Shown: in pieces, positions 37,794 to 56,134 of the stretch
Layout of the letters: the number at the start of each line of letters is the position of its first letter
Numbering within the stretch: the first letter of the stretch is position 1
Assembly (NCBI GenBank): GCA_963765495.1
Contig: CAVXWP010000008.1
Coordinates: forward strand, 128,001-192,000
From: Blastocatellia bacterium
Lineage (GTDB): Bacteria; Acidobacteriota; Blastocatellia; UBA7656
Length of the DNA stretch: 64,000 nt
Direction: 5' to 3'
Made by a program: the position numbers and the translations under genes
The notes under the pieces: generated by a model
Databases searched by the model: none
Told to the model about the DNA's origin: nothing
Seen by the model: only the letters and a program-made list of their open reading frames with translations

Positions 37794-37799
37794 AATTTT

Positions 37800-37886
37800 G
37801 TGATTAGTGATGCGTGAATCGTGATGCGTGATCGGTTGTCTCAATTCAAAGCGTCTCTCCGGTCACGAATCACGATTCACGCATCA
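37800..37886. repeat. Heptamer-periodic palindromic element
   Basis: GTGATGC/GTGAATC units opposite TCACGAA/TCACGAT/TCACGCA units; includes the argF' stop codon. Confidence 0.8.
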
Positions 37887-38894: not shown

Positions 38895-38933
38895 TGGCGT
38901 GAACGAATCTCCAATGTATCGACCTCTTATGAT

Positions 38934-40112
38934 TTAAGCGCTGATCGCTGACAGTTCATCAAGAAACAAATCTATTTCGGGCCGGCGAAGTGTGAGCGGC
39001 GGCAGAAGTCTCAGAACGCTTATGTCGTCGGCAAGCCCGGTGATGATCTTGCGCTCAAGCAAACCCTGCTGAAACGGTTTTGCGTTGCCGCTTTTGAATT
39101 TGATACCGATCAGATAGCCGAGTCCTCTGGTCTCTTCTACCGAGGGAAGCTCTCTCAGCTTTGCAAAAAGATATTCGGAATTAGCGCGGACGTTTTCAAG
39201 CAATCGCTCGTCAAGGATTACATCAATCGTGGCCTCGAGCGCGGCTGAAGCAAGCGGCCCTCCGCCGAATGTGGTCCCGAGGTCGCCAGTCTTGATTTCT
39301 CCCGCTATCTCTTCGGTCACGAGAAGCGCACCCATCGGCACTCCGCTCGCAATGCCTTTCGCCATTGTGACCATATCCGGCAAGATACCGAAACGGCCCG
39401 CAAAAAAGAACTCGCCCGTCCGCCCCATCCCCGTCTGTACTTCGTCGTAGATGAGCATCGAGCCTCTCTTATCGCAAAGCTCGCGAAGTGATTTATAGAA
39501 ATCGGGACCGGCCATTCGAGCGCCGCCCATCGATTGAACAGGCTCAAGGATCACCCCGGCAGTTTCGTCATCAACGAGTTCCGCAATCGCCTCGATGTCG
39601 CCAAACGGCGCGTATACGTGGCCTTCAAGCAAAGGCGATACGCCCTCGCGGTATTTCGGCAGCCCCGTAGCCGAAAGCGACCCCGGCGTGCGTCCGTGAA
39701 ATCCGCCTTCGAACGAGATCATCTTTATCCGGCCCGTGAGCTTTCGCGCGATCTTCATCGCGTTTTCATTCGCCTCTGTGCCCGAGTTGACGAAGAAAAC
39801 CTTTGTGAAAATTTCGGGTGAAATCTCGACAAGTTTCTTTGCGGCGCGCGCGCGAACATCGTTGTAAACAAGATTGGAATAGAAGATCAATCGCCCGGCC
39901 TGCTCGGCTATCGCGCGAACTACGCGGGGGTGCGAGTGACCCGTGGATACGACCGCATGCCCGCCGTACAAATCCAGATAACGGTCGCCTTCTTCGGTCG
40001 TGACCCAGACATCTGTGCCGCTTTCGATGGCGAAAGGGAATTTCTTGTAGGTCGCCACCTGATATCGCTCTTCCATTTCCAGTATGGATTCTCGTTCAAG
40101 CTGTGTAGTCAA
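38934..40112 (-). CDS. argD: Acyl-ornithine aminotransferase
   Basis: NSGTEANE, FHGRT, DEVQTGMGRTG, TMAKG and TTFGG motifs. Confidence 0.92.
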   Translation of the reverse strand: MTTQLERESILEMEERYQVATYKKFPFAIESGTDVWVTTEEGDRYLDLYGGHAVVSTGHSHPRVVRAIAEQAGRLIFYSNLVYNDVRARAAKKLVEISPEIFTKVFFVNSGTEANENAMKIARKLTGRIKMISFEGGFHGRTPGSLSATGLPKYREGVSPLLEGHVYAPFGDIEAIAELVDDETAGVILEPVQSMGGARMAGPDFYKSLRELCDKRGSMLIYDEVQTGMGRTGEFFFAGRFGILPDMVTMAKGIASGVPMGALLVTEEIAGEIKTGDLGTTFGGGPLASAALEATIDVILDERLLENVRANSEYLFAKLRELPSVEETRGLGYLIGIKFKSGNAKPFQQGLLERKIITGLADDISVLRLLPPLTLRRPEIDLFLDELSAISA

Positions 40113-40147
40113 TTCGACACCTCTTTATCAACACAAGCGCTATCAAT

Positions 40148-41179
40148 TCACGGATTCGTTCCTGCCAGTTGCAGCCCTGCTCGTTCTTCCAGGCCGAACA
40201 TCAGATTCATATTTTGCACGGCCTGTCCGGCTGCGCCCTTTACCAGATTGTCGAGCGCCACAAATACAATTACCGTGTCGCCGTTTGCCGCCCAGCCTAT
40301 GTCTACAAAATTCGTACCCTTTACACAGTTAATGTCAGGCGATCCGTTCACAAGGCGTATGAAGAACTCATCGCCGTAATACTCGTTTAATAACTGGCCC
40401 ACCTGATCGCGTGTGGTCGGCTCTTTCACGCTTATGTAGATCGAAGCGAAGATGCCTCGCACGGTCGGGATCGAATGGGTTTGAAAAACCAGGCTGCCCG
40501 TCGCCGGCCATTCGGGGTTGATCGAGTCGAGCAGTTGCTCGACTTCGGGTTGATGCTGATGCTCAAAAACCTTGTAGGCATAAAAACTATTGGCCCGCTT
40601 CGGATGATGAGTGTTGGCCGCAGGTTTTGCGCCGGAGCCTGACGAGCCGGTCTTCAAATCGGCGATGATCTTTCCCGTCGCAAGACCTGTCGCTACAAAG
40701 GGATAGAGGCCGAGTTCGAGCGCGGTCGCAAAACATCCGGGATTCGCGATTCGATTGGCCTGTTTGATCCGGCTGCGATTTACTTCACTCAGGCCGTAGA
40801 CAAATTCCTTTTGAATCCCGATAGCCGTATGATCGCGACCGTAAAACTGCTTGAAAGTATCGGCATCGCTCAGGCGAAAATCGCCCGACAGATCTATGAG
40901 CTTTACACTCGAAGGCACGGCGGGGGCTATCTCCATAGCCTGCCCGTGAGGCAGAGCAAGAAAGACGCAATCGAGCCCTCCGAGTTCGCGCGGGTCGGGC
41001 ATCGCCTCAAATGACAGGTCAGTGAGCTTCGAAAGATTTGGATGAACCGCATCGACTCGCTTGCCCGCGTGCTCGCCCGCCGTGACCCTTCGTATATTCG
41101 CCTCGGGATGAAAAAGCAGGATGCGAAGAAGCTCGCTTCCGCCGTACCCCGATCCACCCAGTATGCCTACATTGACCAC
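40148..41179 (-). CDS. argC: N-acyl-gamma-glutamyl-phosphate reductase
   Basis: GGSGYGG, ALPHG, IANPGC and DNLVKGAAGQAVQN motifs. Confidence 0.95.
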   Translation of the reverse strand: MVNVGILGGSGYGGSELLRILLFHPEANIRRVTAGEHAGKRVDAVHPNLSKLTDLSFEAMPDPRELGGLDCVFLALPHGQAMEIAPAVPSSVKLIDLSGDFRLSDADTFKQFYGRDHTAIGIQKEFVYGLSEVNRSRIKQANRIANPGCFATALELGLYPFVATGLATGKIIADLKTGSSGSGAKPAANTHHPKRANSFYAYKVFEHQHQPEVEQLLDSINPEWPATGSLVFQTHSIPTVRGIFASIYISVKEPTTRDQVGQLLNEYYGDEFFIRLVNGSPDINCVKGTNFVDIGWAANGDTVIVFVALDNLVKGAAGQAVQNMNLMFGLEERAGLQLAGTNP

Positions 41180-42258
41180 TTCGCCAGCTTCTCCTTTATC
41201 AGATTTGCCAGGTCCTCTCCGTGATTCACGGCGTTGGCCGCCGCAAGCCCAAGCTCGGTCCTGATATAATCGGCCCCCATCTCTGAATCAGTGACAGGGC
41301 CGCTCACTACATCTATCTTTACTCCGTGACCGGCCAGCAATTCGCGGCCTCCCCACGCGCCTACGAAATCGCCCGCGCAGAAGACAAGCGCAGCCGTGGA
41401 CTCCATCAATTCCGCATCATTAAAGATGCTCTCTACGCCGTAGCCACCAAGTATGCCGTCGCCAAGCTCGATCACCACGCAATCAGGCTCGACCGAGTCA
41501 AGCTCGCGGATGACGCCTTTCGAGATAGGGGCCAGATCGCCGAGCTTTACCGTCGAGGGCAACCCGCAATCGAGAAAACTCAACGTCTTTACCGCGCCGT
41601 GATCCTGCATGTTGAGCGTATCGCGCAGGCAGGCTACTCCCGCGAGCTTTGCCGCCGCTACTCGAAGACCGGCGCGAGCCAGATGCTTTATGATCTCGGT
41701 CGCGGCATAGGTCTTACCTGAATTCATGCAGGTCCCCGCCACAAGGATGAGTGGCACCTTTACATCAAGCGTGTCGAGAGGGGATATAGCTCCTTCTGCG
41801 ATGTTGAGTATCCGTCCGTCACGCACGGGCATGCCAAGCACCTCAACTTCTATGGCATTGTTGAGACTGTGGTGATGCCCCACACAACGGCCTATCAGCC
41901 CGCCCAGGTTTAACAGGTGCAGGCGGTCGCCCGTTTCTATTGCATCGGGGACATCGCCCACAAAGCCTTTGAGCGCACGGCGGTATCCCAGCACACCGGC
42001 TACAATGTCGCCCGGATTGATCTTTGCCATGCGGCCCGTTATCAATTCGAGCGTGTTGTAGGTCGCATTGTCGGTCAGCGTGCGAACAACAACGACATTG
42101 CCCGGACGCGACTCGCACTCGGTAGTGATTTCCAACTCGTGGCCGAGCCCGAGATTCACCGTGGCCGAGGCTATTTTATCCACCCGCACAAGCCTTAAAT
42201 CCGTTCCCTGTGCGACGACTGGCTTCCCGTCTACTTCAATCAATTGCCCGCTCAACAT
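41167..42258 (-). CDS. DUF1611/DgcN-like P-loop protein; candidate N-acylglutamate synthase
   Basis: GTCMNSGKT, AKLAG, D..LPST and IELGDG motifs; its 3' end overlaps the argC start by 13 bp. The function is inferred from context. Confidence 0.65.
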   Translation of the reverse strand: MLSGQLIEVDGKPVVAQGTDLRLVRVDKIASATVNLGLGHELEITTECESRPGNVVVVRTLTDNATYNTLELITGRMAKINPGDIVAGVLGYRRALKGFVGDVPDAIETGDRLHLLNLGGLIGRCVGHHHSLNNAIEVEVLGMPVRDGRILNIAEGAISPLDTLDVKVPLILVAGTCMNSGKTYAATEIIKHLARAGLRVAAAKLAGVACLRDTLNMQDHGAVKTLSFLDCGLPSTVKLGDLAPISKGVIRELDSVEPDCVVIELGDGILGGYGVESIFNDAELMESTAALVFCAGDFVGAWGGRELLAGHGVKIDVVSGPVTDSEMGADYIRTELGLAAANAVNHGEDLANLIKEKLAKWSM

Positions 42259-42289
42259 TCTCTTTCTCCTTGCTGTAATGTGAGGACAT

Positions 42290-42366
42290 TGATGCGTGAT
42301 GCGTGACCTTTCAGGTAGATGGCTGTTTACCAGCTAAACGCAAATTTCACGCATCACGCATCACGC
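42290..42366. repeat. Heptamer-periodic palindromic element
   Basis: TGATGCGTGATGCGTGA ... TCACGCATCACGCATCACGC; supplies the last codons and stop of argG. Confidence 0.8.
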
Positions 42367-43574
42367 CTCCCCGCTAACTTTCTCATCCTCAAACGAAGCG
42401 CATTGAGCTTTATAAACCCTTCTGCATCGCGCTGATTGTAAACCGTGTCTCGTTCAAATGTGGCAAATGCTTCTGAATAAAGCGAAAGCGGCGAACGCCT
42501 GCCGACAACCGTGCAATTGCCCTTGTAGAGCTTTAGCCGCGCCGTGCCTGTGACGTTCTTTTGCGTCTGATCAAGAAGCGCGCGTATCGCTTCAAATTCC
42601 GGCGAATACCAGAAGCCGTAATAGATCATCTCGGCCACCCGCTCGTTTAGCGAATTCTTCAGGTGGGCGACTTCACGGTCGAGCGTGAGCGATTCCACCG
42701 CCCTGTGCGCTGCCTGCAAAATGGTCATGCCCGGTGTCTCGTAAACGCCGCGAGACTTCATCCCGACAAATCGGTTCTCAACCAGATCCACCCGCCCAAT
42801 GCCATGCTCGCCGCCTATGCGGTTGAGCCGGTCGAGAAGAATCGCGGGCGAAAGCGGCTCGCCGTCAACCGCCACGGGGATGCCTGAGTCGAATTCCACC
42901 TCTACATAGACGGGCGCATCCGGGGCCTGTTCGGGCGAGCGGGTGAGAATGAAAATCTCATCGGGCGGCTCGGCCCACGGGTCTTCTAAAATCCCGCCTT
43001 CGTAACTTATGTGCATCAGGTTGCGATCTATCGAATATGGTTTCTCTTTTGTCGCGGTGACAGGAATATCGTGACGTTCGGCATAGGCTATCAGGTCGGA
43101 GCGCGACTTGAATTGCCATTCGCGCCATGGCGCTATCACTTGAATATCCGGTTCGAGCGCGTAATAGGTAAGCTCGAACCTCACCTGATCGTTTCCTTTG
43201 CCCGTAGCCCCGTGAGCCACCGCCCCGGCTCCTTCCTTGCGCGCAATCTCTATCTGTTTCTTTGCGATCAAAGGACGGGCAAGCGAAGTGCCCAGAAGAT
43301 AAACGCCTTCGTAAACCGCGTTGGCCTTTAGAGCGGTGAATACAAAATCGCGCACGAATTCCTCGCGCAGGTCTTCGACGTATAACTTCGATGCGCCCGT
43401 CGCGTATGCCTTTTCTTCAAGCCCGCCAAGCTCTTCGGCCTGCCCTACATCGGCCGCGAAACAGATCACTTCCGAACCATAGTTTTCTTTTAGCCAGCGC
43501 AGTATGACCGATGTGTCCAGCCCTCCCGAATATGCCAGCACTACCTTCTCAATTTTCTTCTCTTCCGATTGCAT
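42354..43574 (-). CDS. argG: Argininosuccinate synthase
   Basis: [23 protein letters not shown] and SRGVYETPG motifs. Confidence 0.97.
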
Positions 43575-43593
43575 TAAATAGTTCCTCCAGATT

Positions 43594-44076
43594 TCACCAC
43601 GACCACAGCGCTCTACTACCCGCCTTTGAAGATCGCCCCTCGGCCCGCTTCGCAGTCTGAGCGGGGCGCGAAAACAGTTTGACGATCTTCTTCATCGTCA
43701 GGCGCTGAGCAGCCTGATTTTTTACCGCTATGATGATCGTATCGTCGCCTGCCACCGTGCCTACGATCTCCGCAATATCCGCTCGATCAATCGCAAGCGC
43801 GGCCGGCTGTGCCTGACCCGTCTCTGTCTTCACGACAATGATGTTATCGCCCGCCGTATCGATAGCCATAACGGGTCCGCCTACAGGAATCGCCGCCTGT
43901 GGCGCAGTGTAGCGCCCATCCACCTTCGCCAATCCTATCTCGACGATGTCTCGCGAAATACTCGATTGAGTAACCTTGAAACCTCGGCGGGCGACCTCGC
44001 GCGCAAGCTCCTGCTGTGTCGCCACCGGCTTCTTGCTGATAATATCCAGTATCTCCTGTTGCCGCTTCCTCTTCAT
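43594..44076 (-). CDS. argR: Arginine repressor
   Basis: [14 protein letters not shown] and GTVAGDDT motifs. Confidence 0.95.
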
Positions 44077-44088
44077 ATTACCCGTTTC

Positions 44089-44167
44089 TATGCGCTATTA
44101 TTGCATATTATGCGCATATTACTGCTAAAGATGCATAAACTTAGCATATGCGTTTGCCGATGGTCAA
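44089..44167 (-). promoter_or_regulatory. Sigma70-type promoter of the arg operon overlapped by probable ARG boxes
   Basis: Minus strand reads TTGACC-N18-TAAGTT with a TG extension; repeated imperfect palindromes TGCATATTATGCG and ATGCATAAACTTAGCAT. Confidence 0.65.
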
Positions 44168-44372
44168 ATCATTTAAGGAGAAACAGCAGGGGTGAATTTA
44201 GGGTGAGGGGCAGATCAGGAATCGAAATGAAGGAAAGGGAGGCCAGACGAGGCCTCCTCGATCACTAAAGAGCATCCAGGCGAATCACTTCGAAAAAAGG
44301 GTTAAGACTCTTTTAAAGGGACGAAACAGACCGGGGCTTGCTTTCCCGGATATACAAACAGGCTTGAAAATA

Positions 44373-44549
44373 TTAATAGCCCTTATCGCGGAAAACGAGC
44401 AAATAGACTCCGGCCCCGATAATCGGGAAGCACAGGATTAGAACGATCACTACGACCTTTGTCGCCGTATCGCGGTTTGAGCGCAACACATCACTTATGG
44501 CGAAAATGTCGAGTAAGATTGACGCCATAGTCAAAATCCAACTGAACAT
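44373..44549 (-). CDS. 58-aa PLDc_N-like two-TM small protein (absent from the ORF track)
   Basis: MFSWILTMASILLDIFAISDVLRSNRDTATKVVVIVLILCFPIIGAGVYLLVFRDKGY; AAAGGAG RBS. Confidence 0.8.
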   Translation of the reverse strand: MFSWILTMASILLDIFAISDVLRSNRDTATKVVVIVLILCFPIIGAGVYLLVFRDKGY

Positions 44550-44802: not shown

Positions 44803-46455
44803 CTAATTTCTACGAGGCTCGCCGCCCGGAGATGCGGCGCGCAGTCGGCGGATGCCTTCGGCCATTATTTTTGCCTTTGGCATCTCGGCGATAGAGGTTT
44901 GCAATTGAGCGTCGCCGCCCAGCAATACCTGATATGCCGTATCCTGACCGTAGGCAGCGGTCACGGTCTCATATCGAATCTGCATCTTGATGTAGTCGGC
45001 GTCTTTGTCTACCCTTGCCGGGTCGAGTTTCAGGTCTTTATGCTCGCGCAGGAAATTCTTAAAGGCGGCAAGCACCTTCTCATCCACTACATAATCGTCT
45101 GAGGTGAGACGATGGTGATGATCAGCCGGGCGGGCGGACTTGAATTTCTCAAGACCGGTGATTTGACCGGCTACCAGAGGGCGTGTAAATGAAAAGACTG
45201 GCTCGAACCATTCGCGCTGCAACTCGAAGTAATGCTCCGGTATTTTGACCGCAACATCCGGGTCTATGCCGCCGCCGCCGTAAACGGTGCGCCCCGCATC
45301 GGTTCGTTTTTCGTCCGTGCGGTTAACGGCCTCTTTGTCGCCGCGTTTGAGGTAATAATCATAGAGCGAGCGGCCCGCGTATTCGCGCTGAATCAAGCGC
45401 CCGCTTGGTGTGTAATACTTGCCCGTTGTCAATATGAGAGCCGAGCCGTCCGACAACTCGAACGGATTCTGGACCAGCCCTTTGCCAAAGCTGTTTTCGC
45501 CGACTACGCGGGCGCGGTCGTGATCCTGGAGAGCGCCCGCGACGATCTCGGCCGCAGAAGCGGTGCCGCGATTGATGAGCACCACTATGGGATAATCGTC
45601 CGGCACGGGGTTGAAGGCTGCAAGCTCACGCGCTGGAAATACCGAAGGACGACCGCGCATAGAGACAATCTTTTGACCTTTATAAAGGAAGATGTTTGCG
45701 ACTTTCCATGCCTGATTGACAAGCCCGCCGGGATTTCCGCGCAGGTCGAGTATAAGCGATGTCATTCCCAACTGGCGAAGTTCCGTGAGCGCGTTTTGCA
45801 CCTCGTCGTAGGTAGTCGTGTTGAAGCCGCCCTGCAGGTTTATATATCCGACGCCGTTGTCGAGCAGGAAATAATTTGGGATTGAAGGAAGCGGAACCGA
45901 GCCTCGTTTCAGTTTAAATTCTATTGGCTTTTCCGAGCCGATCCGGGCGATCTTAACCGAAACGAAAGTGCCTTCCGGGCCTTTCAGCTTGCTTGAAACC
46001 TTTGAAACGCCCCAGCCAGCCGTTGACTCTCCGTCTATCGCTATTATCTCGTCGCCGTATCGGATTCCTGCGCGATAGGATGCCGTTCCCTCGGTCGGAG
46101 AGAGTATATAAACCTTGCCGTATCGCTGCCCGATTACAGAGCCAATACCGTAATAGCGGCTGCGCTGCTCATTTTGAAAAGTCTCCCACTGTTGCCGGTC
46201 GAAGTACATCGAATGCGGGTCGAGAGTATGCAGCATCCCGTTGATGGATGATTTGGTAATGCGATCCATATCAACTTCGCCCGCAAAATTATCTTTCGCC
46301 ACCAAAAGAGCGCCTGCAAAGTCCTCGGCGATCTTCTGTCTTGTAACGGTTTGGCCCTGGCTTTCGGAAGCCTGACGCTGTCCGGTGGACGCACCGGCGA
46401 ATGTTAGAGGCAGCCATATTGCTACTGCCAGCAACCAGTATTTTCTTGATTTCAT
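44803..46455 (-). CDS. S41A carboxy-terminal processing protease (CtpA/Prc family)
   Basis: Signal peptide; LDPHS, PDZ domain, DLRGNPGG, TASAAE, SFGKG and YYTPSGR motifs. Confidence 0.93.
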   Translation of the reverse strand: MKSRKYWLLAVAIWLPLTFAGASTGQRQASESQGQTVTRQKIAEDFAGALLVAKDNFAGEVDMDRITKSSINGMLHTLDPHSMYFDRQQWETFQNEQRSRYYGIGSVIGQRYGKVYILSPTEGTASYRAGIRYGDEIIAIDGESTAGWGVSKVSSKLKGPEGTFVSVKIARIGSEKPIEFKLKRGSVPLPSIPNYFLLDNGVGYINLQGGFNTTTYDEVQNALTELRQLGMTSLILDLRGNPGGLVNQAWKVANIFLYKGQKIVSMRGRPSVFPARELAAFNPVPDDYPIVVLINRGTASAAEIVAGALQDHDRARVVGENSFGKGLVQNPFELSDGSALILTTGKYYTPSGRLIQREYAGRSLYDYYLKRGDKEAVNRTDEKRTDAGRTVYGGGGIDPDVAVKIPEHYFELQREWFEPVFSFTRPLVAGQITGLEKFKSARPADHHHRLTSDDYVVDEKVLAAFKNFLREHKDLKLDPARVDKDADYIKMQIRYETVTAAYGQDTAYQVLLGGDAQLQTSIAEMPKAKIMAEGIRRLRAASPGGEPRRN

Positions 46456-46626
46456 AGTCGAGCGCTTTCTCCTTACCAGTGTTACAAGGAACGAAGCCAG
46501 AGGGTCCGCTCTTCGAATTAAAGCTTGCGAGCCACCCGCAAGATACCTCCAGAAAAATTCTACTGGAAGCCTGCGCGGAAAACAACTATTGCTTTGTCAA
46601 AGCCGTTGTTGTTTTCAATCAGAGGA

Positions 46627-47511
46627 TCATTTCTTGCGGATATGGAGGGGGTAAATACCTATTAGGCTGGAATCGGGCTTGCCTGGAACTCCTTCAACCT
46701 TGAGCGAATAGTCTCCCGCAGGAAAGAAGTTCGAATTGAAACCGATAGTTAATGAGTTATACCTGTCGGGTTTGAGCCCCGTGCTCCCCCAGAAGCGGTG
46801 ATTATCCGAAAGTATGGTAACGCGATAAGTCTTGTACCGGGTCTCTCCTTCCAGGGGCACCGAGATGACGAAGTTCTCAGATGTTCGAGACAGCGTGATT
46901 TCATTGACATTCGCAGGGTTCTGTCCGCCGCCTCCCCTTACAGAGGTCAATACGAAGATGGGAAGGTTTATGCCGGCTCGCATCCATGCCTGAGACGTGC
47001 CTGCCGATTCGGCTTGCTGTTTTCTCGCATCCTCAAGTTCAGCCTCAAGCCCCCGAAGCTGCTCGTTCAAGCTCTGTTCCGTTTCCTGATGTTGTTGCTC
47101 GGAAGAGGATGCAGCTTGTTGCTGCTCTTCAAAACGGCGTTGCCATTCGGCAGAAGCGTTTTTTGCCTGATCGGCTTCAAACTGCAATCCACGAATCCGG
47201 CTTATCAGAAACAATGAAATGAGCACGGCTACCAACAGCACGCCGTAAGCAGCAAACGCCCAGTTTTTTACGGAAGGCCATTCCCATGAGAACCAGCGCG
47301 ACCTCTTCCTCTCCCGCCCCTTTTCCTGCTTTACCTCTTCCAAAGCGAACTGCTTAAAGCCTTCTCTGAAATCTCTCGTCGTCTTTAAGCGATTTATACA
47401 CTCAGGACAGTCAATGAAATGCTCTTCGAACCGCTCGCTCTCCTCTGCGACCAGTCTCCCCATCAGGTACCGATCAATCAGATCGAATTGTTCAATATAC
47501 TTGTGATCCAT
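46627..47511 (-). CDS. Putative membrane anti-sigma factor (zf-HC2-like, TM, coiled coil, extracytoplasmic domain)
   Basis: YLMGRL..FEEHFIDCPEC; TM helix at about aa 83-103; Q/E-rich coiled coil; directly downstream of an ECF sigma. Confidence 0.75.
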   Translation of the reverse strand: MDHKYIEQFDLIDRYLMGRLVAEESERFEEHFIDCPECINRLKTTRDFREGFKQFALEEVKQEKGRERKRSRWFSWEWPSVKNWAFAAYGVLLVAVLISLFLISRIRGLQFEADQAKNASAEWQRRFEEQQQAASSSEQQHQETEQSLNEQLRGLEAELEDARKQQAESAGTSQAWMRAGINLPIFVLTSVRGGGGQNPANVNEITLSRTSENFVISVPLEGETRYKTYRVTILSDNHRFWGSTGLKPDRYNSLTIGFNSNFFPAGDYSLKVEGVPGKPDSSLIGIYPLHIRKK

Positions 47512-47612
47512 GATGTTCGCCTGATCTCAATAGTAAAGTGTAGTCAAAAACTCGTTCATTGCACTTAACTCCGAAAATACTTAGCACGCCAGTTGATGAA
47601 TTGGCTTCTTTC

Positions 47613-48212
47613 TTAATGATCGTCCGACCCGGGTTCACCCGTAAGTTTCAGAAAAAGCTCCCTGAAGCGCTGGTGCGCTCTGAAAATAATGCGACTGAAC
47701 TGCACTCTGCTGAAGTGAAGATCGGCACAGATCGTTTCCTTCTCCTGTTCAAGGATGTAGTAACGAAAAAGGAGATCCTTATCCCGTTGAACGGTCATCT
47801 CGCTAATTACCTTTCGAACGACTTCGGCTTTCTCCTTCTCAAGCAATTGCTGGGAAGGATCGGATGAGGGGGCTGTCAGACCCTCGGCCGCGTCTATGTC
47901 TTCAGCCTTTATTGCCGACCGCATCTTTCGAACAAAATCAATGGCGATAAATTTAGCCGTTTGACAGATAAAGCCCGAGAGTCTTTCAGGCTCGCGGACA
48001 TCTCCGTGTCGGATTTTTTCGAGCACCTTTATCAAAGTTTCCTGGCGCAGGTCTTCCGCTATAGTGTGATTGCGAACAACCTGGTAGATGATATTGTACA
48101 CGCCCTCCTGATATCGGAGAACCATCTCCTCTTCGGCCTCGTGATCCTGCTGCATGATTCGCGCGACCAATTCCACTAATGAGGTTTTATCATTCAACTG
48201 AATCACATCCAT
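47613..48212 (-). CDS. ECF sigma-70 factor
   Basis: AEDLRQETL in region 2; IIFRAHQRFR in region 4; start 48212 or 48263. Confidence 0.85.
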   Translation of the reverse strand: MDVIQLNDKTSLVELVARIMQQDHEAEEEMVLRYQEGVYNIIYQVVRNHTIAEDLRQETLIKVLEKIRHGDVREPERLSGFICQTAKFIAIDFVRKMRSAIKAEDIDAAEGLTAPSSDPSQQLLEKEKAEVVRKVISEMTVQRDKDLLFRYYILEQEKETICADLHFSRVQFSRIIFRAHQRFRELFLKLTGEPGSDDH

Positions 48213-48288
48213 TACTTGTTTGCGAAACGGCCTCCTGATGCCTTTGCTGTCTGTTAAACCCAACCTAAATTAACGTGTCGTTTATTAC

Positions 48289-50841
48289 CTATTTATTACC
48301 TATAACGATGAAAGGTGCCCAATAATAGGGATGTCGCGTTTCCTTGCCGCTCTTTAGCATCTGGAGCTTTGCCTCGCGGAGCGCGGCGGCGCTGCCCGTC
48401 TTATCAAGCAAGTGGCGATAAAAATCTTTCATCAGATGGCTGGTCGAGATATCGCTGACATCCCAAAGACTTGCGACAACTGACCGTGCTCCCGCATAGA
48501 GAAAGGCGCGGCTCAACCCAACTATACCTTCCCCGGAATACAGACGTCCGCGCCCGGTTTGACAGGCGCTCAAGACTACCAGATCGCAATCCAGATCCAA
48601 TTCGGCAATCTCGCTTGCTTCCAGGAAACCGTCTTCCTGCGGGTCCATGTCCTGTGTGAGGACAACGGCGGATCGTGAGGGATCACTCACATCAACAAGA
48701 CTGTGTGTGGCAAAATGCAAGCGCCTGTAACGACGCAAGGGCTCTGCTTTAACCGCTTCTTCCGTGCAGTCCTTCCCCAGATAGACCCGTCGATGATCCG
48801 GCTTAAACAGCCCGGCAATTTCCTGAACCTCATCACGCGTCCTGGGGAGCGCGGAAAGATTATATCCGTCAGAAATTCTCATGGCTTGTCTTAGGACGTC
48901 TGCTTCGTCGCCGTTACGTTTTATTTTAGATGTCTGCGGCGCGAAGATTGGATCGCCAAAGGCGAGCAGGTCGAGTTTATCGTCGAGTTTATCGTCGAGT
49001 TTATCGCCGGGTTCATCTCCTTTCTTTGAAGCCCTCAACAAAGAGAGCATGCTCGCCGATGGGAGATAGCTGATTTCATGTTCCTCTATGAGAGAGTGCC
49101 CCTCCTGGTTAAGAGTCTCAAAAGGCAGATAGTAAAGAATGCCATCAGGGACAATGATAAACTTCTTGCCCGGTGCGAGTCGCTCGGCTAATCTGCCAAA
49201 TAATATCGCGGAGAGCCTTGCGGCTAAATCCCGCTGTCTGGCAAGCTCTCTATCGAGAAACAGATTATTGGGTCTGGTTGTAATGATGCTCAGGTACTGC
49301 TCGACCGCTTTTTCAATCTCCTGTCGTCCCGGCAAAATTTCCATTGAGACTTCATCTGGGGAAATCAGCCAGAGGAATGAATGTGACTCGCCTAAGAAGT
49401 ACTCTAACACACACCCATCATCCTGTCTCAGATTCTCTTGAATCTGCTCGACGCCAGCGGTCCGAAACCACGCGAATCTATCTTTGGTGTGTTGCATTTC
49501 GGTCTTTAGCTGTTCTTCCTTCAATTTGAATTCAGCCTCTTGAATGTCGGCTTCAATTTTTGCGCGTTGTTTTAGGCTTAATTGTGGGGAGAGCAACTGT
49601 ATGCGGAGGTCGGCCAGGGATCGGGATATCTCGCCGATTCTGCTGTCGTAATCAAGAAGTCTGGACGGTCCGTTTGTGTGTCGCGCCATTATCACAGAGA
49701 GGATGGCTCGAGATCTGGCCTGCTCGGTTTGGTTATAGGCTTCATTTATGCGACCCTGTTCGATCAAGAGTTCCACAAGCTCTCCATAAGGCGCGCGGCG
49801 CTCTTCGCCGAAAGCAATTGCCCCCGATTCTGTAGATTTGGTGACCGACAGCCAGATTCCTTCGATACGACCGATTGCGCGGAAGTATGATTTCACAGCC
49901 TCCTCTTTCAGGCCGTTTGCGCGTTGTGAACGAGCCAGTTCGAGAAAAGCTCGCCACTGCCATTCCCAGACTCCTCGCTTTTCGCCTTCGCTTGTGACCT
50001 GCTTAAATTGGATGGCAGCTAATTCAACGGCCTGTTGAGCGGCGTCCAGGGCTGCTTCCTTCTGCCCGGAAGCCAGACAGAGATCGGAAATTGAGGAAAG
50101 AACCCTGCCTTTTCCCTCTGCATTCGCTGTCTTTTGATAGATCGCGAGTGCCTCATTAAAGGCCGTGCGCGCCGCATCCTTCAGACCCTGCTGCTGAGCT
50201 ATACGACCAGACAGATGTAATAAAGCTGCTTCCATGTCAGCGTTCTTTTGCAGGCGATTCAATTGCCTTGCCTGTTCAATGAATGTGAAGGCCCGTCCTG
50301 TCTCCTTCGATTGATAGGAAAGCGCCGCCAATCCGACTAATGCTTCCGTCTGCGTATAGGCATCCCTGGCCCTGCGGGCCTGATCGAGTGCTTTCACGTA
50401 GTAACGCCCGGCAAGGTCGAAATTGTAGAGTTCAGCAAAAATTTTTGCGATGGAAGTAAAGGCAAGAGCTTTTATGCGGCTGGGAAGCGGTTTTACCTCA
50501 AGCGCCCGGTCGTAATAGTAAAGTGATTCCTGAAAGCGCTTCCTCTCTCTATAGGCATCACCGACCAGAAGAGCCGAATGCGCGGCCTTTTCAGGTTCTC
50601 GCAATTCAATCCATACTCGCATGGCTTCCAGAAGCCGTTCGCGTGCACCACTTTGATCGCTTGTTTCGGAGAGGCTAAGGGCATCTCTTACCAACTCTTC
50701 TGCCTTGCTAGCCGTTTCCGATTGACGGGCTGTTATTTTCGCCTCAGCACTACGGCCAGGAGCAAGAGATACTGTAGCGATCCAGAGAGCCAGACTCACC
50801 GCAAAAATTGTTATGCAGTTTGAAGAAAATTGTCGTATCAA
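48289..50841 (-). CDS. Secreted TPR-CHAT (caspase-like) protease
   Basis: Signal peptide; TPR repeats; IVPDG.L..LPFE, LHFATHS, LVVLSACQTG, SLWDVSD and HPYYWAPF motifs. Confidence 0.92.
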   Translation of the reverse strand: MIRQFSSNCITIFAVSLALWIATVSLAPGRSAEAKITARQSETASKAEELVRDALSLSETSDQSGARERLLEAMRVWIELREPEKAAHSALLVGDAYRERKRFQESLYYYDRALEVKPLPSRIKALAFTSIAKIFAELYNFDLAGRYYVKALDQARRARDAYTQTEALVGLAALSYQSKETGRAFTFIEQARQLNRLQKNADMEAALLHLSGRIAQQQGLKDAARTAFNEALAIYQKTANAEGKGRVLSSISDLCLASGQKEAALDAAQQAVELAAIQFKQVTSEGEKRGVWEWQWRAFLELARSQRANGLKEEAVKSYFRAIGRIEGIWLSVTKSTESGAIAFGEERRAPYGELVELLIEQGRINEAYNQTEQARSRAILSVIMARHTNGPSRLLDYDSRIGEISRSLADLRIQLLSPQLSLKQRAKIEADIQEAEFKLKEEQLKTEMQHTKDRFAWFRTAGVEQIQENLRQDDGCVLEYFLGESHSFLWLISPDEVSMEILPGRQEIEKAVEQYLSIITTRPNNLFLDRELARQRDLAARLSAILFGRLAERLAPGKKFIIVPDGILYYLPFETLNQEGHSLIEEHEISYLPSASMLSLLRASKKGDEPGDKLDDKLDDKLDLLAFGDPIFAPQTSKIKRNGDEADVLRQAMRISDGYNLSALPRTRDEVQEIAGLFKPDHRRVYLGKDCTEEAVKAEPLRRYRRLHFATHSLVDVSDPSRSAVVLTQDMDPQEDGFLEASEIAELDLDCDLVVLSACQTGRGRLYSGEGIVGLSRAFLYAGARSVVASLWDVSDISTSHLMKDFYRHLLDKTGSAAALREAKLQMLKSGKETRHPYYWAPFIVIGNK
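48970..49006 (-). repeat. 12-bp in-frame tandem repeat x3 (DKLD)
   Basis: GTCGAGTTTATC x3. Confidence 0.9.
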
Positions 50842-50902
50842 GGGTTACCCATCTTTCAAATGGTTGGTCATTGTATCATCGCGCTGATTCTATTGAGAAT
50901 AC

Positions 50903-50957
50903 GATAAAGCTCTTTAGGACCGGGTTATGAACTAACCCGGTCCTAAAGAGCTTTATC
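50903..50957. repeat. Perfect 25-bp-stem hairpin
   Basis: GATAAAGCTCTTTAGGACCGGGTTA-TGAAC-TAACCCGGTCCTAAAGAGCTTTATC. Confidence 0.95.
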
Positions 50958-50996
50958 ACAGTCACAAACAGGAAGGCCGCAGCCCGACAGAGCGTC

Positions 50997-51785
50997 TTAC
51001 TTTACAATGGACCCGCAACCGAAGGAGTCGGGAGGGAACGAGGGATTGAGATCAATCTTTGTGAAGAACAGGTCATAAAGCAGCGCGCCATCGAGCGAGA
51101 CGTGCTGGAGGAATGGTAGCTGAATGCCGTCTACCTCACGATAATCGGCAAAATCTATTACCAGTGTATGCTGATTGCGGATCATCTGAACCCTTTGAAT
51201 GACATGCCAGCTATCCACCAGCACTACCCAAATGCCTGAGGCAGTCTTTATTTCGAACTTATCCTGATTGCCTTCTACGGGGCCAAGATATACGGCGCGT
51301 AATCTGGCATCTTGAATCTGTTTGAGGATCGGGATAAGCCCGAAGGATTCTACGCTGAACTTTACCGCCCTTGATTCCGATTCATCCAATTGATTGGATG
51401 CGTTCACCAGATTACCTTCTTCGAATTCCGAACGGCAGGCCACCTGTTCGCCGACGATGTCAATTTGTTCCCTCAATTGATGTGGAGCAACCTTGTCGCG
51501 CTTGAAAGTGTTGCCGTCGGTTGAAACCGTGATCTTTCGCTCAAAATACCCCGGCAGGTCGCTTCCGGGGTTCACGTGGTAATACATCAACTTTCTGGCT
51601 TCTGCCACATAGGAAACCAGTGCGTCAGGGGTCTGCAAGACGTTGTGTGCCTGCAGTACCTCATCAATACTTGAAACAGGCCCCGCTGTATTTGCCTTCC
51701 CGGCAAATGCAATCGCGATCCCTGTCGTAAGCAGGCCGATTATGGCCATAGCAAGCATGATTTTTTTCATTTGTACTCCTTTCAT
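50997..51785 (-). CDS. Secreted hypothetical protein (LolA-like beta-sheet tail)
   Basis: Signal peptide; C-terminal FADYREVDGIQLPF..IDLNPSFP pattern. Confidence 0.65.
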   Translation of the reverse strand: MKGVQMKKIMLAMAIIGLLTTGIAIAFAGKANTAGPVSSIDEVLQAHNVLQTPDALVSYVAEARKLMYYHVNPGSDLPGYFERKITVSTDGNTFKRDKVAPHQLREQIDIVGEQVACRSEFEEGNLVNASNQLDESESRAVKFSVESFGLIPILKQIQDARLRAVYLGPVEGNQDKFEIKTASGIWVVLVDSWHVIQRVQMIRNQHTLVIDFADYREVDGIQLPFLQHVSLDGALLYDLFFTKIDLNPSFPPDSFGCGSIVK

Positions 51786-51891
51786 CCGTGCAAATTAGAC
51801 GGTCGGGCAGTCACGCCCGGCAGATAGCGAGTCTCTGTCCGACCTTTTGGAGCAAACATGGAGCAAGTGATTTACTAAAGAGCAGTCGGTT

Positions 51892-52161
51892 TTAACCCAG
51901 ACAATGGTCAATGCAGGAGGCATATATATCCTCGCATGTTGGGTCTGAACTGATGCCGTTGTGTGACAGACACACTAAATACGCTTCCTGGCACATTTGC
52001 AAACAGGCGCCTTGAGCGAGAGCCGTAGAATAGGGCTTTGCCAGCCCTATGGTCATTACTAAAAGGATCGCCAGAGCGAGGATGGCAAATGCTTTCCGGG
52101 TAGATTCGTAGAGACTCGACAGAGGCGATGTCCCTCTATTTTTGGCTTGAGCCTTGTTCAT
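51892..52161 (-). CDS. Small secreted six-Cys peptide precursor
   Basis: AAAGGAG RBS; hydrophobic signal ending ALA; mature part CX3CX6C-X11-CX6CX3C. Confidence 0.75.
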   Translation of the reverse strand: MNKAQAKNRGTSPLSSLYESTRKAFAILALAILLVMTIGLAKPYSTALAQGACLQMCQEAYLVCLSHNGISSDPTCEDIYASCIDHCLG

Positions 52162-52548
52162 ATCAATCTCCTTTCAGTTTTTCCTGGCGGTCAATCTCCG
52201 CCGGTTCACCGGGGTTATTGGCTGATAAGGAGGCTGGGGGGACATAGGCGAGAGAAAATTTTTCGCACTCGGTAAAAACAGATAAGAGTTGACATTGATA
52301 TGAGGCCCGGGTGTCTGGATGCTTTGACAGTGATTTACATTCAAATCGAATCAGCAGATTTCATTAAAGAGACGCGTGGTGGTATGCCGGGCACGCTCAT
52401 GCCACTTTACAGGTGTAAAGCCCTTACTTTGTCAGCCTATTCTTGATGAGCGATTTGTGTGCGCCTTTGGCGGGGATTCAATCCAGAGAGGACGAGTTTA
52501 GTCCCGGAAGCCCGCGAGGGACACTCTTCGCTGTGGGAGGGAATCAGG

Positions 52549-53271
52549 ATGAAAGATGGGGAGACCAACTTGTGGAAACGTTACCATGAGCACGACCCGG
52601 AAGCGCTTGAGGATTTGGTGAAGCACTATATAGGTCTGGTGCGATTCTGGACTAAGAAGATGACCGGAATAGCTCCGTGGGTGGAAAGGGAAGACCTGAT
52701 GCAAGAGGGATTGATCGCCCTGACAAAGGCAATCCCGGAATTTGAGCCCGATAGAGGAAACGATTTCAGCACCTATGCCGGACCCTGGATTCGCGGGGCA
52801 CTTCTTGCTTATCTGCAAAGTGGGCGCAATTTGCCTCGCCTTCAGTATGAGAACTTTAGGAGAATAGATCAGGCACAGGAAGCCCTTATACGCAGGAAGG
52901 GAGACAAACCAACCCTGGCGGAGATCGCTCAGGAGGCCGGATTGACCGAGCAGCAGGTGCATAGGGCGATTGATGCGATGGCCGTCGCCACGCCGGAGGG
53001 ATTTATAGATTGCGATACAGGTTCAAGTGTGAGAAGTTACAGGGACGAAGGTCCTGAAAATACAATTCTGATTCGTGAATTGTTGTTGAATTTAAATGAA
53101 AGGGAGAGATGGGTATTGGCAGAATTTTATGATCTGGGCTACACGGATCGCGAGATCGCCGACCGGCGCAACCTGACGCCGGACCATGTTAAGAAGATTC
53201 GTCACCGGGCACTGGAAAAACTTGGTAAACTGCTTGATAAGAAACTGGGAGGGCAGCGCCATGAAGACTGA
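52549..53271 (+). CDS. Group-3-like sigma-70 factor (FliA/SigB-type)
   Basis: EDLMQEGLIAL, F.P.RG..FSTYA..WIRG, PTLAEIA, and region 4 EIA..VKKIRHRALEKL; GGAGG RBS. Confidence 0.85.
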   Translation: MKDGETNLWKRYHEHDPEALEDLVKHYIGLVRFWTKKMTGIAPWVEREDLMQEGLIALTKAIPEFEPDRGNDFSTYAGPWIRGALLAYLQSGRNLPRLQYENFRRIDQAQEALIRRKGDKPTLAEIAQEAGLTEQQVHRAIDAMAVATPEGFIDCDTGSSVRSYRDEGPENTILIRELLLNLNERERWVLAEFYDLGYTDREIADRRNLTPDHVKKIRHRALEKLGKLLDKKLGGQRHED

Positions 53272-53911
53272 AGATCTGGAAAGGGCATTAAGGGATGCGA
53301 AGTTCCACCACCTGGTCGATGATGTGCTCATTTCCTACCGGGACCAAAAACTGGATGGAATCAGCCGCAGACAGGCCGAGGCGCACCTCGATCTCTGCCT
53401 GATCTGCGAGAGGCGTCTTTTGCTTCTTCAAGAAGAGCTATTGGCGCTCGATGATCAAGATATGCATCCCGAGGAAGCGGCTTTGGTGGAGCGGGTATTG
53501 AATCAGATGCGCATAGGACAATCTTCGACTTCAGAGCCCCGAGGCCCCGGCCCTTCGATGAAGGATCGTGTGAACGTGTATATGCAACAGGCATCGGCGA
53601 GTTGGCAAGCCTGTGTGTTGCATATAATACCTGTGCGAGAAGCCGCACCCGGCGACGAGATCTGGCGATGGGAGAGCGAGGATGGCGGGTTTGTGGCCTA
53701 TGCCATCATGAAATCTGCCGACAACCTGGCTTTCCATTTTTCTTCCACAGACCCGGCCCTGGAAGGCGCGCCTCTGAGAATCAAGGCAGGCTCCCTGAGT
53801 CAAGAGACAATATTGAGACGCATCTCTGAGACAGATATTTCCGCTGAAATCGTAATCTCGCGCGATAAACACCCAAATAGTTTCGACGACATCTCCTTCG
53901 AAACCGACTGA
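53261..53911 (+). CDS. Putative cytoplasmic zinc-finger anti-sigma-like protein
   Basis: H..(EA)HLDLCLIC HxxxCxxC motif; overlaps the sigma stop codon; no TM helix. Confidence 0.65.
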   Translation: MKTEDLERALRDAKFHHLVDDVLISYRDQKLDGISRRQAEAHLDLCLICERRLLLLQEELLALDDQDMHPEEAALVERVLNQMRIGQSSTSEPRGPGPSMKDRVNVYMQQASASWQACVLHIIPVREAAPGDEIWRWESEDGGFVAYAIMKSADNLAFHFSSTDPALEGAPLRIKAGSLSQETILRRISETDISAEIVISRDKHPNSFDDISFETD

Positions 53912-54724
53912 TGCAGCCCTTGCCCGGGAGGGTATTTAGCCGTTCCTCTACTTCGGGATTGACCGCGCAGATGCTTTCATAGAGTGAAAACCCAGACAAT
54001 GCAAGGCAGTTCTTCACGGCTCTCTATTGCAAATCCAAAAATTGAAAAGAAAAATTCTTCCCGCATGCGATATTTGTCACCCGCTTCGCACTTTACCTAT
54101 GAAAGTCTACAACCCGGACTGTGAACCTGGAAGAATTCAAGAGTAGAAACAGCTTCCAGGCTTTCAGATACAGGGGAAATGTAGTTTAATCTGTAATACT
54201 TTCGATGCTATTGATCATTAGCAAGTTTTACTTCCGGGCTATTAAATGAAAAGTTGTTGGCGAGGGTAGTGACTACGTATTGAGAGCCCCTGTAGTTGAG
54301 GGATATTCCAATGCGACCCAGAGGGTTCCCTTGCTCAATTATTTTTCGGATATAGCCGCGCCGTAGGTATGCCGAACAGGGTAGACTGACGGGCGTTTGC
54401 TAGCGCGCCCGATGTCACCCTCTATAGAAAGAAAGTCATAATAGTTCTCAAACTGGTCTGTCGAGGTCCCGAGGAACCACTCTTTGATTGATGTATAAGC
54501 TTCACGTTCCTTCGCGCACTTGCAAGCGGCAGGTTCTCGCAAGTGCGCGAAGTACGCAAAGATTTTCCTGAGAATTAAATTAGCCTTGGAATTGCTCTGG
54601 GATAGCTCTGTATTTCGAGACGGCATTCTTGACACTGCGATCATCCAGCCCATAAAATCGTTGCCTGGGTCGGTCCCCGCTGTGAACGCAGGAATTCTTT
54701 ATTCGATGTTACTGGGGGTATCCT

Positions 54725-56134
54725 TTGAGACTGCGACTGCTTCTCAACCTGGCACTCATCATGGCTGTTATCGCTCTGGAGTCTCATTCTTCAGGGGCAG
54801 CATTCCCTCGTCCAACCATCGGTAATGATGATCGCGTGCCCCAGGAGCTTGAGGTTTTTCAAGGATATCTCGACCCGGCCCCGGATGGAATGGATGTGCG
54901 TTATGTATGGACTCTGCCCGGAGGTCACGGGGAAAACGTACGCATCGCTGATATTGAACTAAACTGGAACCTTCAGCATAACGATCTACTCGAAGTCTCA
55001 AACAGGACATTTCTGCTCGTCAAAGGGATAGACCCGAACCCGGAGATCAATCTACAACACGGGACCGCAGTGCTGGGCGAACTGGCCGCCGCCGATGACG
55101 GCATAGGCGTGACGGGAATCGCGCACGCCGCACAGATAGGGCTGGTCAATCCCGTAGGAGCCGGTGTGAGTCTGAAAGTGGCCGATGCCATCAAACAGGC
55201 CATGAGAAAGCTTGCCGCGGGCGATGTGGTGTTGATCGAAATGCAATCGCCTAACGGACCCCACTTTGATCCTCGCACCGGACTCGGGCTTGCTCCGATT
55301 GAGATAGAGCAGGATGTGTTTGATGCGATACAGGAAGCGACATCACGTGGTATAACCGTGGTCGAACCGGCGGGCAACGGATTCGAAAATCTTGATGACG
55401 CGGCATTTGGCGGCAAATTCAACCGAAACAACCGCGATTCGGGAGCAATAATGGTAGGGGCAGGGTTGCCGCCCGAAGGCATCTATGGCCCGGGGCCGGA
55501 CCGCGTACGGACCGAGGAATCCAACTACGGCTCGCGTGTGGACGTTCAAGGGTGGGGTCGCTTCGTCACGACTTGCGGGTATGGTGATCTGCGTCACGAG
55601 CAGGGCGTCAATAACTGGTACACAACGCTTTTCGGAGGAACTTCGGGCGCTGCCGCGATGGTAGCGGGTGCGGCGGCCATTATACAAAGCGTGGTCAAGC
55701 AGCGAGGCCGCGAGCCGCTCACGGCGGTTCAATTGCGGCGCTTACTCGCTTCAACCGGCACGCCGCAAGCGGGAAACACAAACCAATCAATAGGTCCTCG
55801 TCCGAATCTTCGCGCCGCAATCGAAATGCTCGATACCGATCCGAGCGAATTAGCGCCACGGATTACGGCGATCAAATACAAAAAGACGGCGGGAAAATTT
55901 GTCATTGACGGCGAAAATTTCGTCTTAAATGAATCCATCCTTGAAATAGACGGCCAGCCAGTCATGCGCATAAAGTTTCCTGTCGATTATAGGCTGCCCG
56001 GCGGCGTCGCTTTGCGCATGAAGACTAAAGATAATGTGAGCGCGCTGGTTCCAACAGGCGTTGAAGTTTCATTGACAATTCTCAATCCAACAACCGGGAA
56101 GCGCTCCGAGCCGTTTCCATTTACCAGACCGTGA
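54725..56134 (+). CDS. Secreted S8 subtilisin-family peptidase with Ig/IPT-like tail
   Basis: IADIE, HGTAVLG, PAGNG and GGTSGA catalytic motifs. Confidence 0.9.
   Translation: MRLRLLLNLALIMAVIALESHSSGAAFPRPTIGNDDRVPQELEVFQGYLDPAPDGMDVRYVWTLPGGHGENVRIADIELNWNLQHNDLLEVSNRTFLLVKGIDPNPEINLQHGTAVLGELAAADDGIGVTGIAHAAQIGLVNPVGAGVSLKVADAIKQAMRKLAAGDVVLIEMQSPNGPHFDPRTGLGLAPIEIEQDVFDAIQEATSRGITVVEPAGNGFENLDDAAFGGKFNRNNRDSGAIMVGAGLPPEGIYGPGPDRVRTEESNYGSRVDVQGWGRFVTTCGYGDLRHEQGVNNWYTTLFGGTSGAAAMVAGAAAIIQSVVKQRGREPLTAVQLRRLLASTGTPQAGNTNQSIGPRPNLRAAIEMLDTDPSELAPRITAIKYKKTAGKFVIDGENFVLNESILEIDGQPVMRIKFPVDYRLPGGVALRMKTKDNVSALVPTGVEVSLTILNPTTGKRSEPFPFTRP

Follow-up and report, generated by a model that had tools for sequence, protein, structure and literature searches.

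In the RseA/RseB/DegS/RseP system, a transmembrane (TM) anti-sigma factor is removed by regulated intramembrane proteolysis (RIP), with a periplasmic site-1 protease and a LolA-fold companion. Sigma28 factors, of the FliA/WhiG type, have FlgM or RsiG as partners. Caspase-like proteases of the TPR-CHAT class have also been linked to sigma factors. According to PMC11506125, DdvA of Myxococcus xanthus is the only characterised anti-sigma factor with a TPR-CHAT region, and the two are fused. The DdvA/DdvS system (PDB 8ROT) has a sigma factor of the extracytoplasmic function (ECF) type, a single-pass zinc-binding anti-sigma factor, and a periplasmic TPR-CHAT region proposed as the site-1 protease before RseP. 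In type III-E CASP (Csx29/Csx30/CASP-sigma), according to excerpts of PMC10028731, a stand-alone TPR-CHAT protein holds a separate anti-sigma factor by its C-terminal domain, cuts a loop, and relieves a sigma factor. Genes for ECF54 factors, in Actinobacteria, are near those for a CHAT-TPR protein and a subtilase, and proteolytic control has been proposed (excerpts of PMC7826278 and PMC8999054). Here, we describe a locus in 64,000 nucleotides of a Blastocatellia bacterium (contig CAVXWP010000008.1, positions 128,001 to 192,000). This whole stretch is the window, to which all coordinates refer. We read the locus as a regulated-proteolysis cassette, in which an exported caspase-like site-1 protease would feed a two-sigma loop. 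Taken as a whole, we give this reading an even chance.

An initial annotation, made from the DNA letters alone, drew a module of six genes at 44803..52161. Six open reading frames (ORFs), in one orientation on the minus strand, are indeed found at those limits, and scans of the Pfam and NCBIfam type agree with the families named. However, these limits are too wide at the S41 protease end and too narrow at the other. The cassette ends at ~54360 on the peptide side, and the S41 gene is outside it. The six genes had been listed correctly; a sigma28-like gene, its zinc-finger partner, a non-coding RNA, and the promoters had been overlooked. The features are as follows.

46627..47511, minus strand: TM zinc-finger anti-sigma factor (ZAS domain, TM segment, coiled coil, periplasmic beta-sandwich, Arg192 loop; zf-HC2 above cut-off)
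47535..47564, minus strand: ECF-type promoter copy 1, TGNGATAR-N15-CACTT, 54 nt 5' of the anti-sigma start (leave-one-out score 16.8)
47613..48263, minus strand: ECF sigma factor (PF04542; TIGR02937 above cut-off; the start may be an ATG ~50 nt inside)
48289..50841, minus strand: TPR-CHAT caspase-like protease, putatively exported (His713-Ser and Cys760; short clade type of ~850 aa)
50997..51785, minus strand: secreted protein of LolA-superfamily fold, accessory (in 7 of the 14 clade loci covering the interval)
51892..52161, minus strand: secreted six-cysteine peptide precursor, 89 aa (C-x3-C-x6-C ... C-x6-C-x3-C; varies between cassettes)
52215..52264, minus strand: peptide-operon promoter (A-tract, GTCC, 17 nt, GCCAATAA; sigma28-like geometry)
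52379..52408, plus strand: ECF-type promoter, degenerate (score 8.3, shuffle p 0.015); the sigma28-like gene is 170 nt downstream
52549..53271, plus strand: group 3 sigma factor of FliA/WhiG-like type, its gene divergent from that of the peptide (ORF open from 52459)
53261..53911, plus strand: cytoplasmic zinc-finger anti-sigma-like protein (HxxxCxxC, no TM segment, Arg loop ahead of a beta-rich domain; overlaps the sigma28-like stop)
54065..54094, plus strand: copy 2 of the ECF-type promoter, with the RNA core motif 199 nt downstream
54243..54354, plus strand: core of a structured non-coding RNA (multi-helix junction; predicted transcript from ~54100)
44803..46455, minus strand: S41 protease, CtpA-type, intact (TIGR00225, 280.8 bits against a cut-off of 218.6)

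To sample related loci, an alignment of 100 anti-sigma sequences was run once against GTDB genomes, yielding 60. An ECF homologue is upstream of the anti-sigma gene in 53 (at no more than 1.5 kb in 52; L015 has an insertion), and the remaining 7 are the weakest matches of the scan. CHAT genes are present in 49 loci, immediately upstream in 43, and accompany 48 of the 53 ECF genes. Of the five ECF loci with no CHAT, three break off at most 1.1 kb upstream, a fourth has partial coverage, and L008 lacks the gene across 10 kb on each side. In L008 (~8145-9206), the peptide and second sigma genes are likewise missing within 10 kb, and this is possibly a disrupted cassette. CHAT, ECF, and TM anti-sigma genes do, then, co-occur, in keeping with the module as first drawn. 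The nearest relatives of the cassette are Blastocatellia, and its relatives belong to Acidobacteriota. Searched as a profile, the anti-sigma factor matches 428 representative clusters at E <=1e-30 and 3922 at 1e-10, the weaker of which possibly share the zinc finger only.

Within this sample, the window belongs to a group in which Ser follows the catalytic His of CHAT. This His-Ser clade holds 16 of 51 CHAT catalytic domains, the window included, and is monophyletic in 40 of 40 bootstrap rounds of a neighbour-joining tree built from those domains. Catalytic domain identity is 63% inside the clade and 36% to the outside. The cysteine peptide is encoded in all 13 His-Ser loci that reach far enough, and the divergent FliA/WhiG-like sigma gene, with its overlapping zinc-finger gene, in all 12 that are long enough. 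Among the other 45 loci, no peptide, sigma28-like, or cytoplasmic zinc-finger gene was found. Several cassettes can share a genome; L002 and L004 are one such pair, L016 and L032 another. Fragmented genes, probably due to frameshifts in the assembly of metagenome-derived genomes, are those for CHAT in L002, L023, L032, and L053, and for the zinc-finger protein in L002 and L009. In L002, phage-tail-sheath-like genes (by eye; 360-3287) and a BTAD activator adjoin the cassette. The initial annotation took the cascade to be independent of CRISPR. This agrees with the window, where no CRISPR array or array-like repeats were found. PADLOC gave no Cas or CBASS-type match among the 9 window proteins scanned.

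The putative protease matches PF12770 (E 8.5e-75; 252 bits against a cut-off of 24) and has TPR repeats too. Both catalytic places are filled, by His713 in ATHS and Cys760 in SACQTG, so the dyad that had been noted stands. The signal peptide noted with it is read from its pattern: a basic n-region, 15-19 hydrophobic residues, and A-x-A. By hydropathy, 12 of 13 complete clade CHAT ORFs have a leader-like N-terminus, as do most long-form CHATs. Such N-termini, on most CHATs of the family, look export-like, as had been suggested, and would place the protein in the periplasm. The catalytic Cys is conserved in 56 of 56 CHAT rows and the His in 54; the two exceptions are a contig end and a frameshift fragment. 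Across the family, the residue following the His alternates between Gly, Ala, Ser, and Thr. Clade CHATs, at ~850 aa, are shorter than those of other loci (1000-1250 aa). The sole solved sequence matching the window CHAT domain is 8ROT (E 1.7e-6). Run against the PDB as a profile, the full-length CHAT alignment gave only TPR matches among the matches listed. By analogy, CHAT would be an active peptidase that cleaves the anti-sigma factor. A 12-nt tandem repeat in the CHAT gene (window 48970-49017) encodes in-frame repeats, in a loop before the catalytic strands. Five loci have a further CHAT-type gene, convergent with the one for the cytoplasmic zinc-finger protein (L004 2449-4341, L011 1070-4522, L016 23-3298, L013 1740-3617, and L032 2612-3745). 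Three encode leader-bearing TPR-CHATs and two are leaderless, one of these being an NB-ARC fusion not scored as CHAT by Pfam.

The anti-sigma factor has HxxxCxxC from residue 31 and a single TM segment from ~85. An AlphaFold2 model comprises a zinc-binding helical bundle, a long helix (81-169) that takes in membrane and stalk, and a beta-sandwich (183-294). With the zf-HC2 match, this bears out the architecture described initially (HxxxCxxC, TM helix, long stalk, terminal domain). The protein matches RsiW structurally (5wuq_C; Z 6.7, rmsd 3.8, 67 residues aligned), and a TM-like segment is present in 53 of 53 anti-sigma ORFs tested. Fold searches with the terminal domain found generic beta-sandwiches (best Z 8.7) and no specific relative. 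CHAT had been thought to cut the coiled-coil stalk. However, no stalk residue is kept comparably to Arg192, in the terminal domain. This Arg is conserved in 137 of 150 diverse homologues, where mean column identity is just 26%, and in 51 of 54 locus rows, with two further rows offset by one. It opens a low-confidence loop of the AlphaFold2 model, and the next residue is usually Gly or Ser. Separases cut after Arg within a disordered motif (PMC11506125, section 8). Arg192, in its periplasmic loop, is the best candidate for P1, and hence for the cut site. Steroidobacteraceae-like homologues in L054-L056, L058, and L059 have lost the zinc ligands and retain the TM segment and Arg loop; there is no ECF or CHAT gene in the DNA covered.

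Binding of the two proteins was modelled with CHAT residues 36-850, anti-sigma residues 176-294, and 3 controls. The complex scored 0.43, against 0.00 for the best control, with contact agreement between runs of at least 87% and partner pLDDT of at least 76. Note that, of 157 solved complexes, 116 reached the mark for this score, as did 2 of 215 mismatches, and that the range up to 0.60 holds just 18 of those complexes, yet both mismatches. The model is weakly in favour of CHAT binding the periplasmic domain, and its score covers binding, not docking of Arg192.

An unbiased two-word search of upstream regions, from which 11 loci had been dropped (near-duplicates or without ECF), recovered TGNGATAR-N15-CACTT de novo. 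Of 31 distant loci, 16 have the motif, against 0.35 expected; of 19 clade loci, 12 do, against 0.52 expected. By leave-one-out score, it precedes the anti-sigma gene in 33 of 53 ECF loci and 0 of 7 loci without ECF. We infer that ECF recognises the motif, which tracks ECF in both groups; the DNA-reading segments of ECF are alike in the clade and ECF-only groups. In distant loci, the second motif copy is mostly before genes for unrelated, leader-bearing proteins (beta-propellers, sulfatases, dihaem proteins). Within the clade, 7 of 13 loci, one being the window, have a degenerate ECF-type site before the sigma28-like gene (shuffle p<0.05). Before the peptide gene, the motif is missing in 13 of 13 loci (best 2.9; background 95th percentile 6.2). 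This does not fit the initial proposal that ECF directly induces the peptide operon. The link is probably indirect, since the ECF-type motif precedes the sigma28-like gene, not the peptide, and the motif before the peptide fits sigma28.

The sigma28-like factor has regions 2, 3, and 4, and is below the family threshold of TIGR02479 (108.4 against a cut-off of 189.6). BLAST finds no similarity between the cytoplasmic zinc-finger protein and the TM anti-sigma factor. Across loci, the peptide promoter consists of an A-tract, GTCC, 17 nt, and GCCnATnA, located 76-90 nt before the peptide start. GT is conserved in 13 of 13 loci, GC 21-22 nt further on in 11-12 of 13, and A at -11 and -8 in 11 of 13 each. 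The motif occurs solely in loci having the sigma28-like gene. Its spacing fits the sigma28 layout given in excerpts of PMC12784957, (-36)TCTAAAG and (-15)GCCGATAA. In the window, 7 of 8 bases of the second half-motif equal the sigma28 -10 word. These features suggest that the sigma28-like factor reads the peptide promoter. Between the two divergent genes, in L004, L005, L016, L017, L020, and L032, there is also a conserved word, which the window does not have. This is akin to a DnaA box or to a sigma70 promoter on the opposite strand.

The peptide has a hydrophobic leader and Cys residues at 53, 57, 64, 76, 83, and 87. No family was found in Pfam, NCBIfam, or PADLOC, and the best Atlas match was 0.84. 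The LolA-like protein (262 aa; model pLDDT 88.9) has no Pfam match. Its top Foldseek matches are LolA3 (E 3e-8), DUF1329, LolB, and LolA, with RseB weaker (E 3e-4). As modelled, it is an open beta-barrel with a helical lid, a likeness at the level of fold (TM-score ~0.5). Between the LolA-like and CHAT genes is a 35-bp inverted repeat (window 50893-50967), possibly a processing, stability, or termination signal. Mean identity over 11 cassettes is 0.38 for the peptide, 0.43 for the TPR region, 0.39 for the anti-sigma terminal domain, and 0.60 for the catalytic domain. The first three thus diverge fastest, which fits expectation for a triplet that encodes specificity. With multiple cassettes per genome, it would also suit cassette-specific ligands.

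The structured RNA is found in L008 and in 12 of the 15 His-Ser loci, hence in 13 of 60, making 14 copies with the window. It is 3' of either the TM anti-sigma gene or the cytoplasmic zinc-finger gene. All 14 copies have an ECF-type promoter 149-272 nt upstream, 3 of these being recognised only by a relaxed pattern, after the RNA had been found. Two-sided changes occur in 25 of 39 pairs and 86% of cells pair, which 0 of 500 shuffles equal; slid controls drop to 37-48% pairing. Note that the structure was drawn from the same sequences used for this test, which favours the structure. Independently, RNAalifold recovers 3 of 4 helices and prefers a three-way junction, with helix 2 open. Helix 2 is invariant, so the junction may be four-way or three-way. 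The window z is -3.6. Rfam gave no match over the element, with E up to 5 allowed for the window and up to 1 for 4 loci, and there is no match to plasmids and phages. A covariance-model search of the 60 loci and the window returned the 14 training copies and none further. For the 5' part, no consensus structure was predicted. As other identities of the region, tRNA and tmRNA were looked for and none was found; nor does 54100-54700 hold an ORF with a conserved counterpart. In several loci, the downstream gene is on the opposite strand, which speaks for a free RNA rather than a leader. That the RNA regulates the sigma28-like arm is a guess.

The S41 gene had been linked to the module, with coincidence allowed for. 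It is beside the cassette in 0 of 60 loci, of which 53 have at least 3 kb covered downstream. In the window, a hairpin and a terminator-like site separate it from the cassette. Hence, we regard it as a bystander. Directly 3' of the RNA is a gene (window 54725-56134, plus strand) for an S8 subtilase, which is secreted and has a beta domain at its C-terminus. As an ECF target, it was rejected: the RNA intervenes, it has its own sigma70-like site at 54629-54658 (11/12), and it occurs in 0 of 60 loci. The arginine biosynthesis cluster downstream of the S41 gene (window 36900-44549, minus strand) is ordinary; ArgR and a small PLDc_N protein are encoded with it. At 26990-27056, an 18-nt tandem repeat is within a GrpE-like or heat-shock-adjacent ORF (by eye).

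We propose that the exported TPR-CHAT protein would grip the periplasmic beta-sandwich of the membrane anti-sigma factor. On binding of a signal by the TPR region, CHAT would act as site-1 protease and cut after Arg192. A housekeeping protease of the RseP type, which we include because of the DdvA/DdvS analogy and general knowledge of RIP, would complete cleavage and free ECF. By analogy, this step is reasonably likely. We have greater confidence that ECF would then transcribe its own anti-sigma gene, in negative feedback, the structured RNA and, more weakly, the sigma28-like gene with its zinc-finger partner. Subsequently, the sigma28-like factor would transcribe the operon of peptide, LolA-like, and perhaps CHAT and ECF genes, closing the loop, a step for which the balance tips slightly in favour. 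Doubtfully, the variable, disulfide-bonded peptide would be a cassette-specific ligand or modulator of the TPR region. A peptide-pheromone system, for quorum or kin recognition, is more doubtful still. Here, each peptide would activate its own TPR-CHAT and so trigger the cut in the anti-sigma factor. ECF would then switch on the structured RNA, as a new class, and the sigma28-like factor, which would raise peptide production, in an autoinducing two-sigma loop with several orthogonal copies per genome.

Several observations weigh against the proteolytic cassette as proposed. The 60 loci are mutually related, so counts from them are not independent. L008 has ECF, anti-sigma, and RNA with no CHAT over 10 kb either side. 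The motif threshold is unmet before the anti-sigma gene in 20 of 53 ECF loci, and 6 of 13 loci have no significant ECF-type site before the sigma28-like gene. Once withheld from the matrix, the second half of the peptide promoter has a low score (5.7 for the window, 1.8 for L013, 2.7 for L019). The CHAT leader of L009 is weak (1.47), and the 35-bp hairpin may uncouple CHAT from the LolA-like gene. The scheme does not account for relief of the cytoplasmic zinc-finger partner, beside whose gene leaderless CHAT-like genes occur only in L013 and L032. Five Steroidobacteraceae/Gammaproteobacteria homologues have Arg at the same place (by eye), with no ECF or CHAT in the DNA covered. Since such homologues keep the Arg, its conservation may be structural. 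In PMC11506125, self-cleavage of DdvA is a proposal, which could not be tested there for want of the activating signal. Finally, all 16 clade CHATs have Ser where Gly usually follows the catalytic His. Together with the Arg retained where no CHAT is nearby, and with DdvA having been observed in the resting state only (same paper), this would suit CHAT being a non-cutting receptor or shield, which binds the anti-sigma ectodomain, controls access of housekeeping proteases, and whose His-Ser marks a weakened enzyme. We think this improbable. His and Cys are retained throughout, different small residues follow the His across the family, and the catalytic domain, at 0.60, is the best-conserved part of the cassette.

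A stronger competitor keeps the same core of protease, anti-sigma factor, and ECF, but has the peptide as an output (a secreted effector, antimicrobial, or feedback inhibitor of CHAT) and an external trigger. This might be a periplasmic protein of foreign or phage origin, or else a lipid that the LolA-fold protein presents in the way RseB does for RseA. In its favour, only 13 of 60 loci have the peptide, so that most CHAT-ECF-anti-sigma triads are without it, and in distant triads the genes behind the second ECF-type promoter encode unrelated proteins, most of them with leaders. The fold of the secreted protein is that of LolA, with RseB among its weaker matches, and PMC11506125 proposes a phage or periplasmic protein as the DdvA signal. 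Conversely, the peptide is in all 13 long-enough clade loci, paired with the shorter CHAT; the LolA-like gene is missing from 7 of 14 clade loci; and PADLOC gave no Cas or CBASS-type match for the window proteins scanned. We consider this a minority possibility. In a version of the mechanism first proposed, ECF would transcribe the peptide operon from the A-tract/GTCC promoter, CHAT would cut the stalk, and S41 would trim the stub. The half-motif of A-tract and GTCC has a strong leave-one-out score in the window (19.4); it might represent the -35 and -10 elements of an ECF promoter, and we take it to resemble the FecI-like consensus. The S41 gene is intact and adjacent. Nevertheless, A-tract/GTCC is missing before cassette genes of ECF-only loci, despite like DNA-reading segments, and a different motif tracks ECF in both groups. 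The fixed GCC element, 17 nt downstream, is left unexplained, and S41 is both absent beside all 60 cassettes and set off by its hairpin and terminator-like site. Hence, this account is very improbable.

On the proteolytic reading, the cassette has wider interest. It makes the activation of periplasmic TPR-CHAT proteases directly testable in a laboratory strain, by offering a separable enzyme, a predicted cut site, a neighbouring candidate ligand, and defined promoters. Beyond this, it gives a lead to a family of signalling systems, large and unstudied, in abundant soil bacteria (Acidobacteria), to new promoter specificity for ECF and group 3 sigma factors, and to an uncatalogued structured RNA. 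If the pheromone reading were true, a new kind of cell-to-cell signalling loop would be possible. CRISPR-independent CHAT/anti-sigma/sigma systems have reportedly been described in Lysobacter. In the literature searched, which left most subscription papers outside, no description of the cassette, promoters, or RNA was found. Other caspase-sigma neighbourhoods feature in excerpts of PMC8195603 and of a SAVED-CHAT preprint. The core of three genes may have been published before; the RNA, like the peptide/sigma28-like arm, appears undescribed.

Compared with RseA/RseB/DegS/RseP, the cassette shares a TM anti-sigma factor, a putative periplasmic site-1 protease, and a LolA-fold companion, probably periplasmic. 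However, the site-1 enzyme would be a caspase-fold cysteine protease, and the LolA-fold protein is optional and nearer to LolA3 and DUF1329-type structures than RseB. Like FliA and WhiG, the second sigma factor has regions 2, 3, and 4, and a -10 element of GCCnATnA type at sigma28 spacing (excerpts of PMC12784957). In contrast, its -35 element is GTCC, its partner is a zinc-finger protein, no flagellar genes are nearby, and it falls below the TIGR02479 cut-off. ECF54, in the excerpts cited above, is actinobacterial and without an anti-sigma factor, whereas the cassette has a constant TM anti-sigma factor, a subtilase neighbour in 0 of 60 loci, and relatives in Acidobacteriota. Type III-E CASP, as excerpted, is cytoplasmic, activated by RNA through Cas7-11, and has no TM anti-sigma factor. 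The window CHAT is also not a Csx29 equivalogue (28.6 bits against a cut-off of 300, with no array-like repeats in the window). DdvA/DdvS is closer, and the cassette likewise has a single-pass anti-sigma factor of the ZAS type beside an ECF. According to PMC11506125, DdvA is myxococcal and fuses TPR-CHAT to the anti-sigma factor, whereas the window and related loci have separate genes. DdvA controls a CBASS/CRISPR island, whereas the cassette targets would be the RNA and a second sigma factor, with secreted proteins taking their place elsewhere. A further difference is in the cassette anti-sigma factor, which has a coiled coil and, on its beta-sandwich, an Arg loop. By analogy, then, the cassette is best likened to a split DdvA/DdvS, the system closest to it in logic, of which it is not a member.

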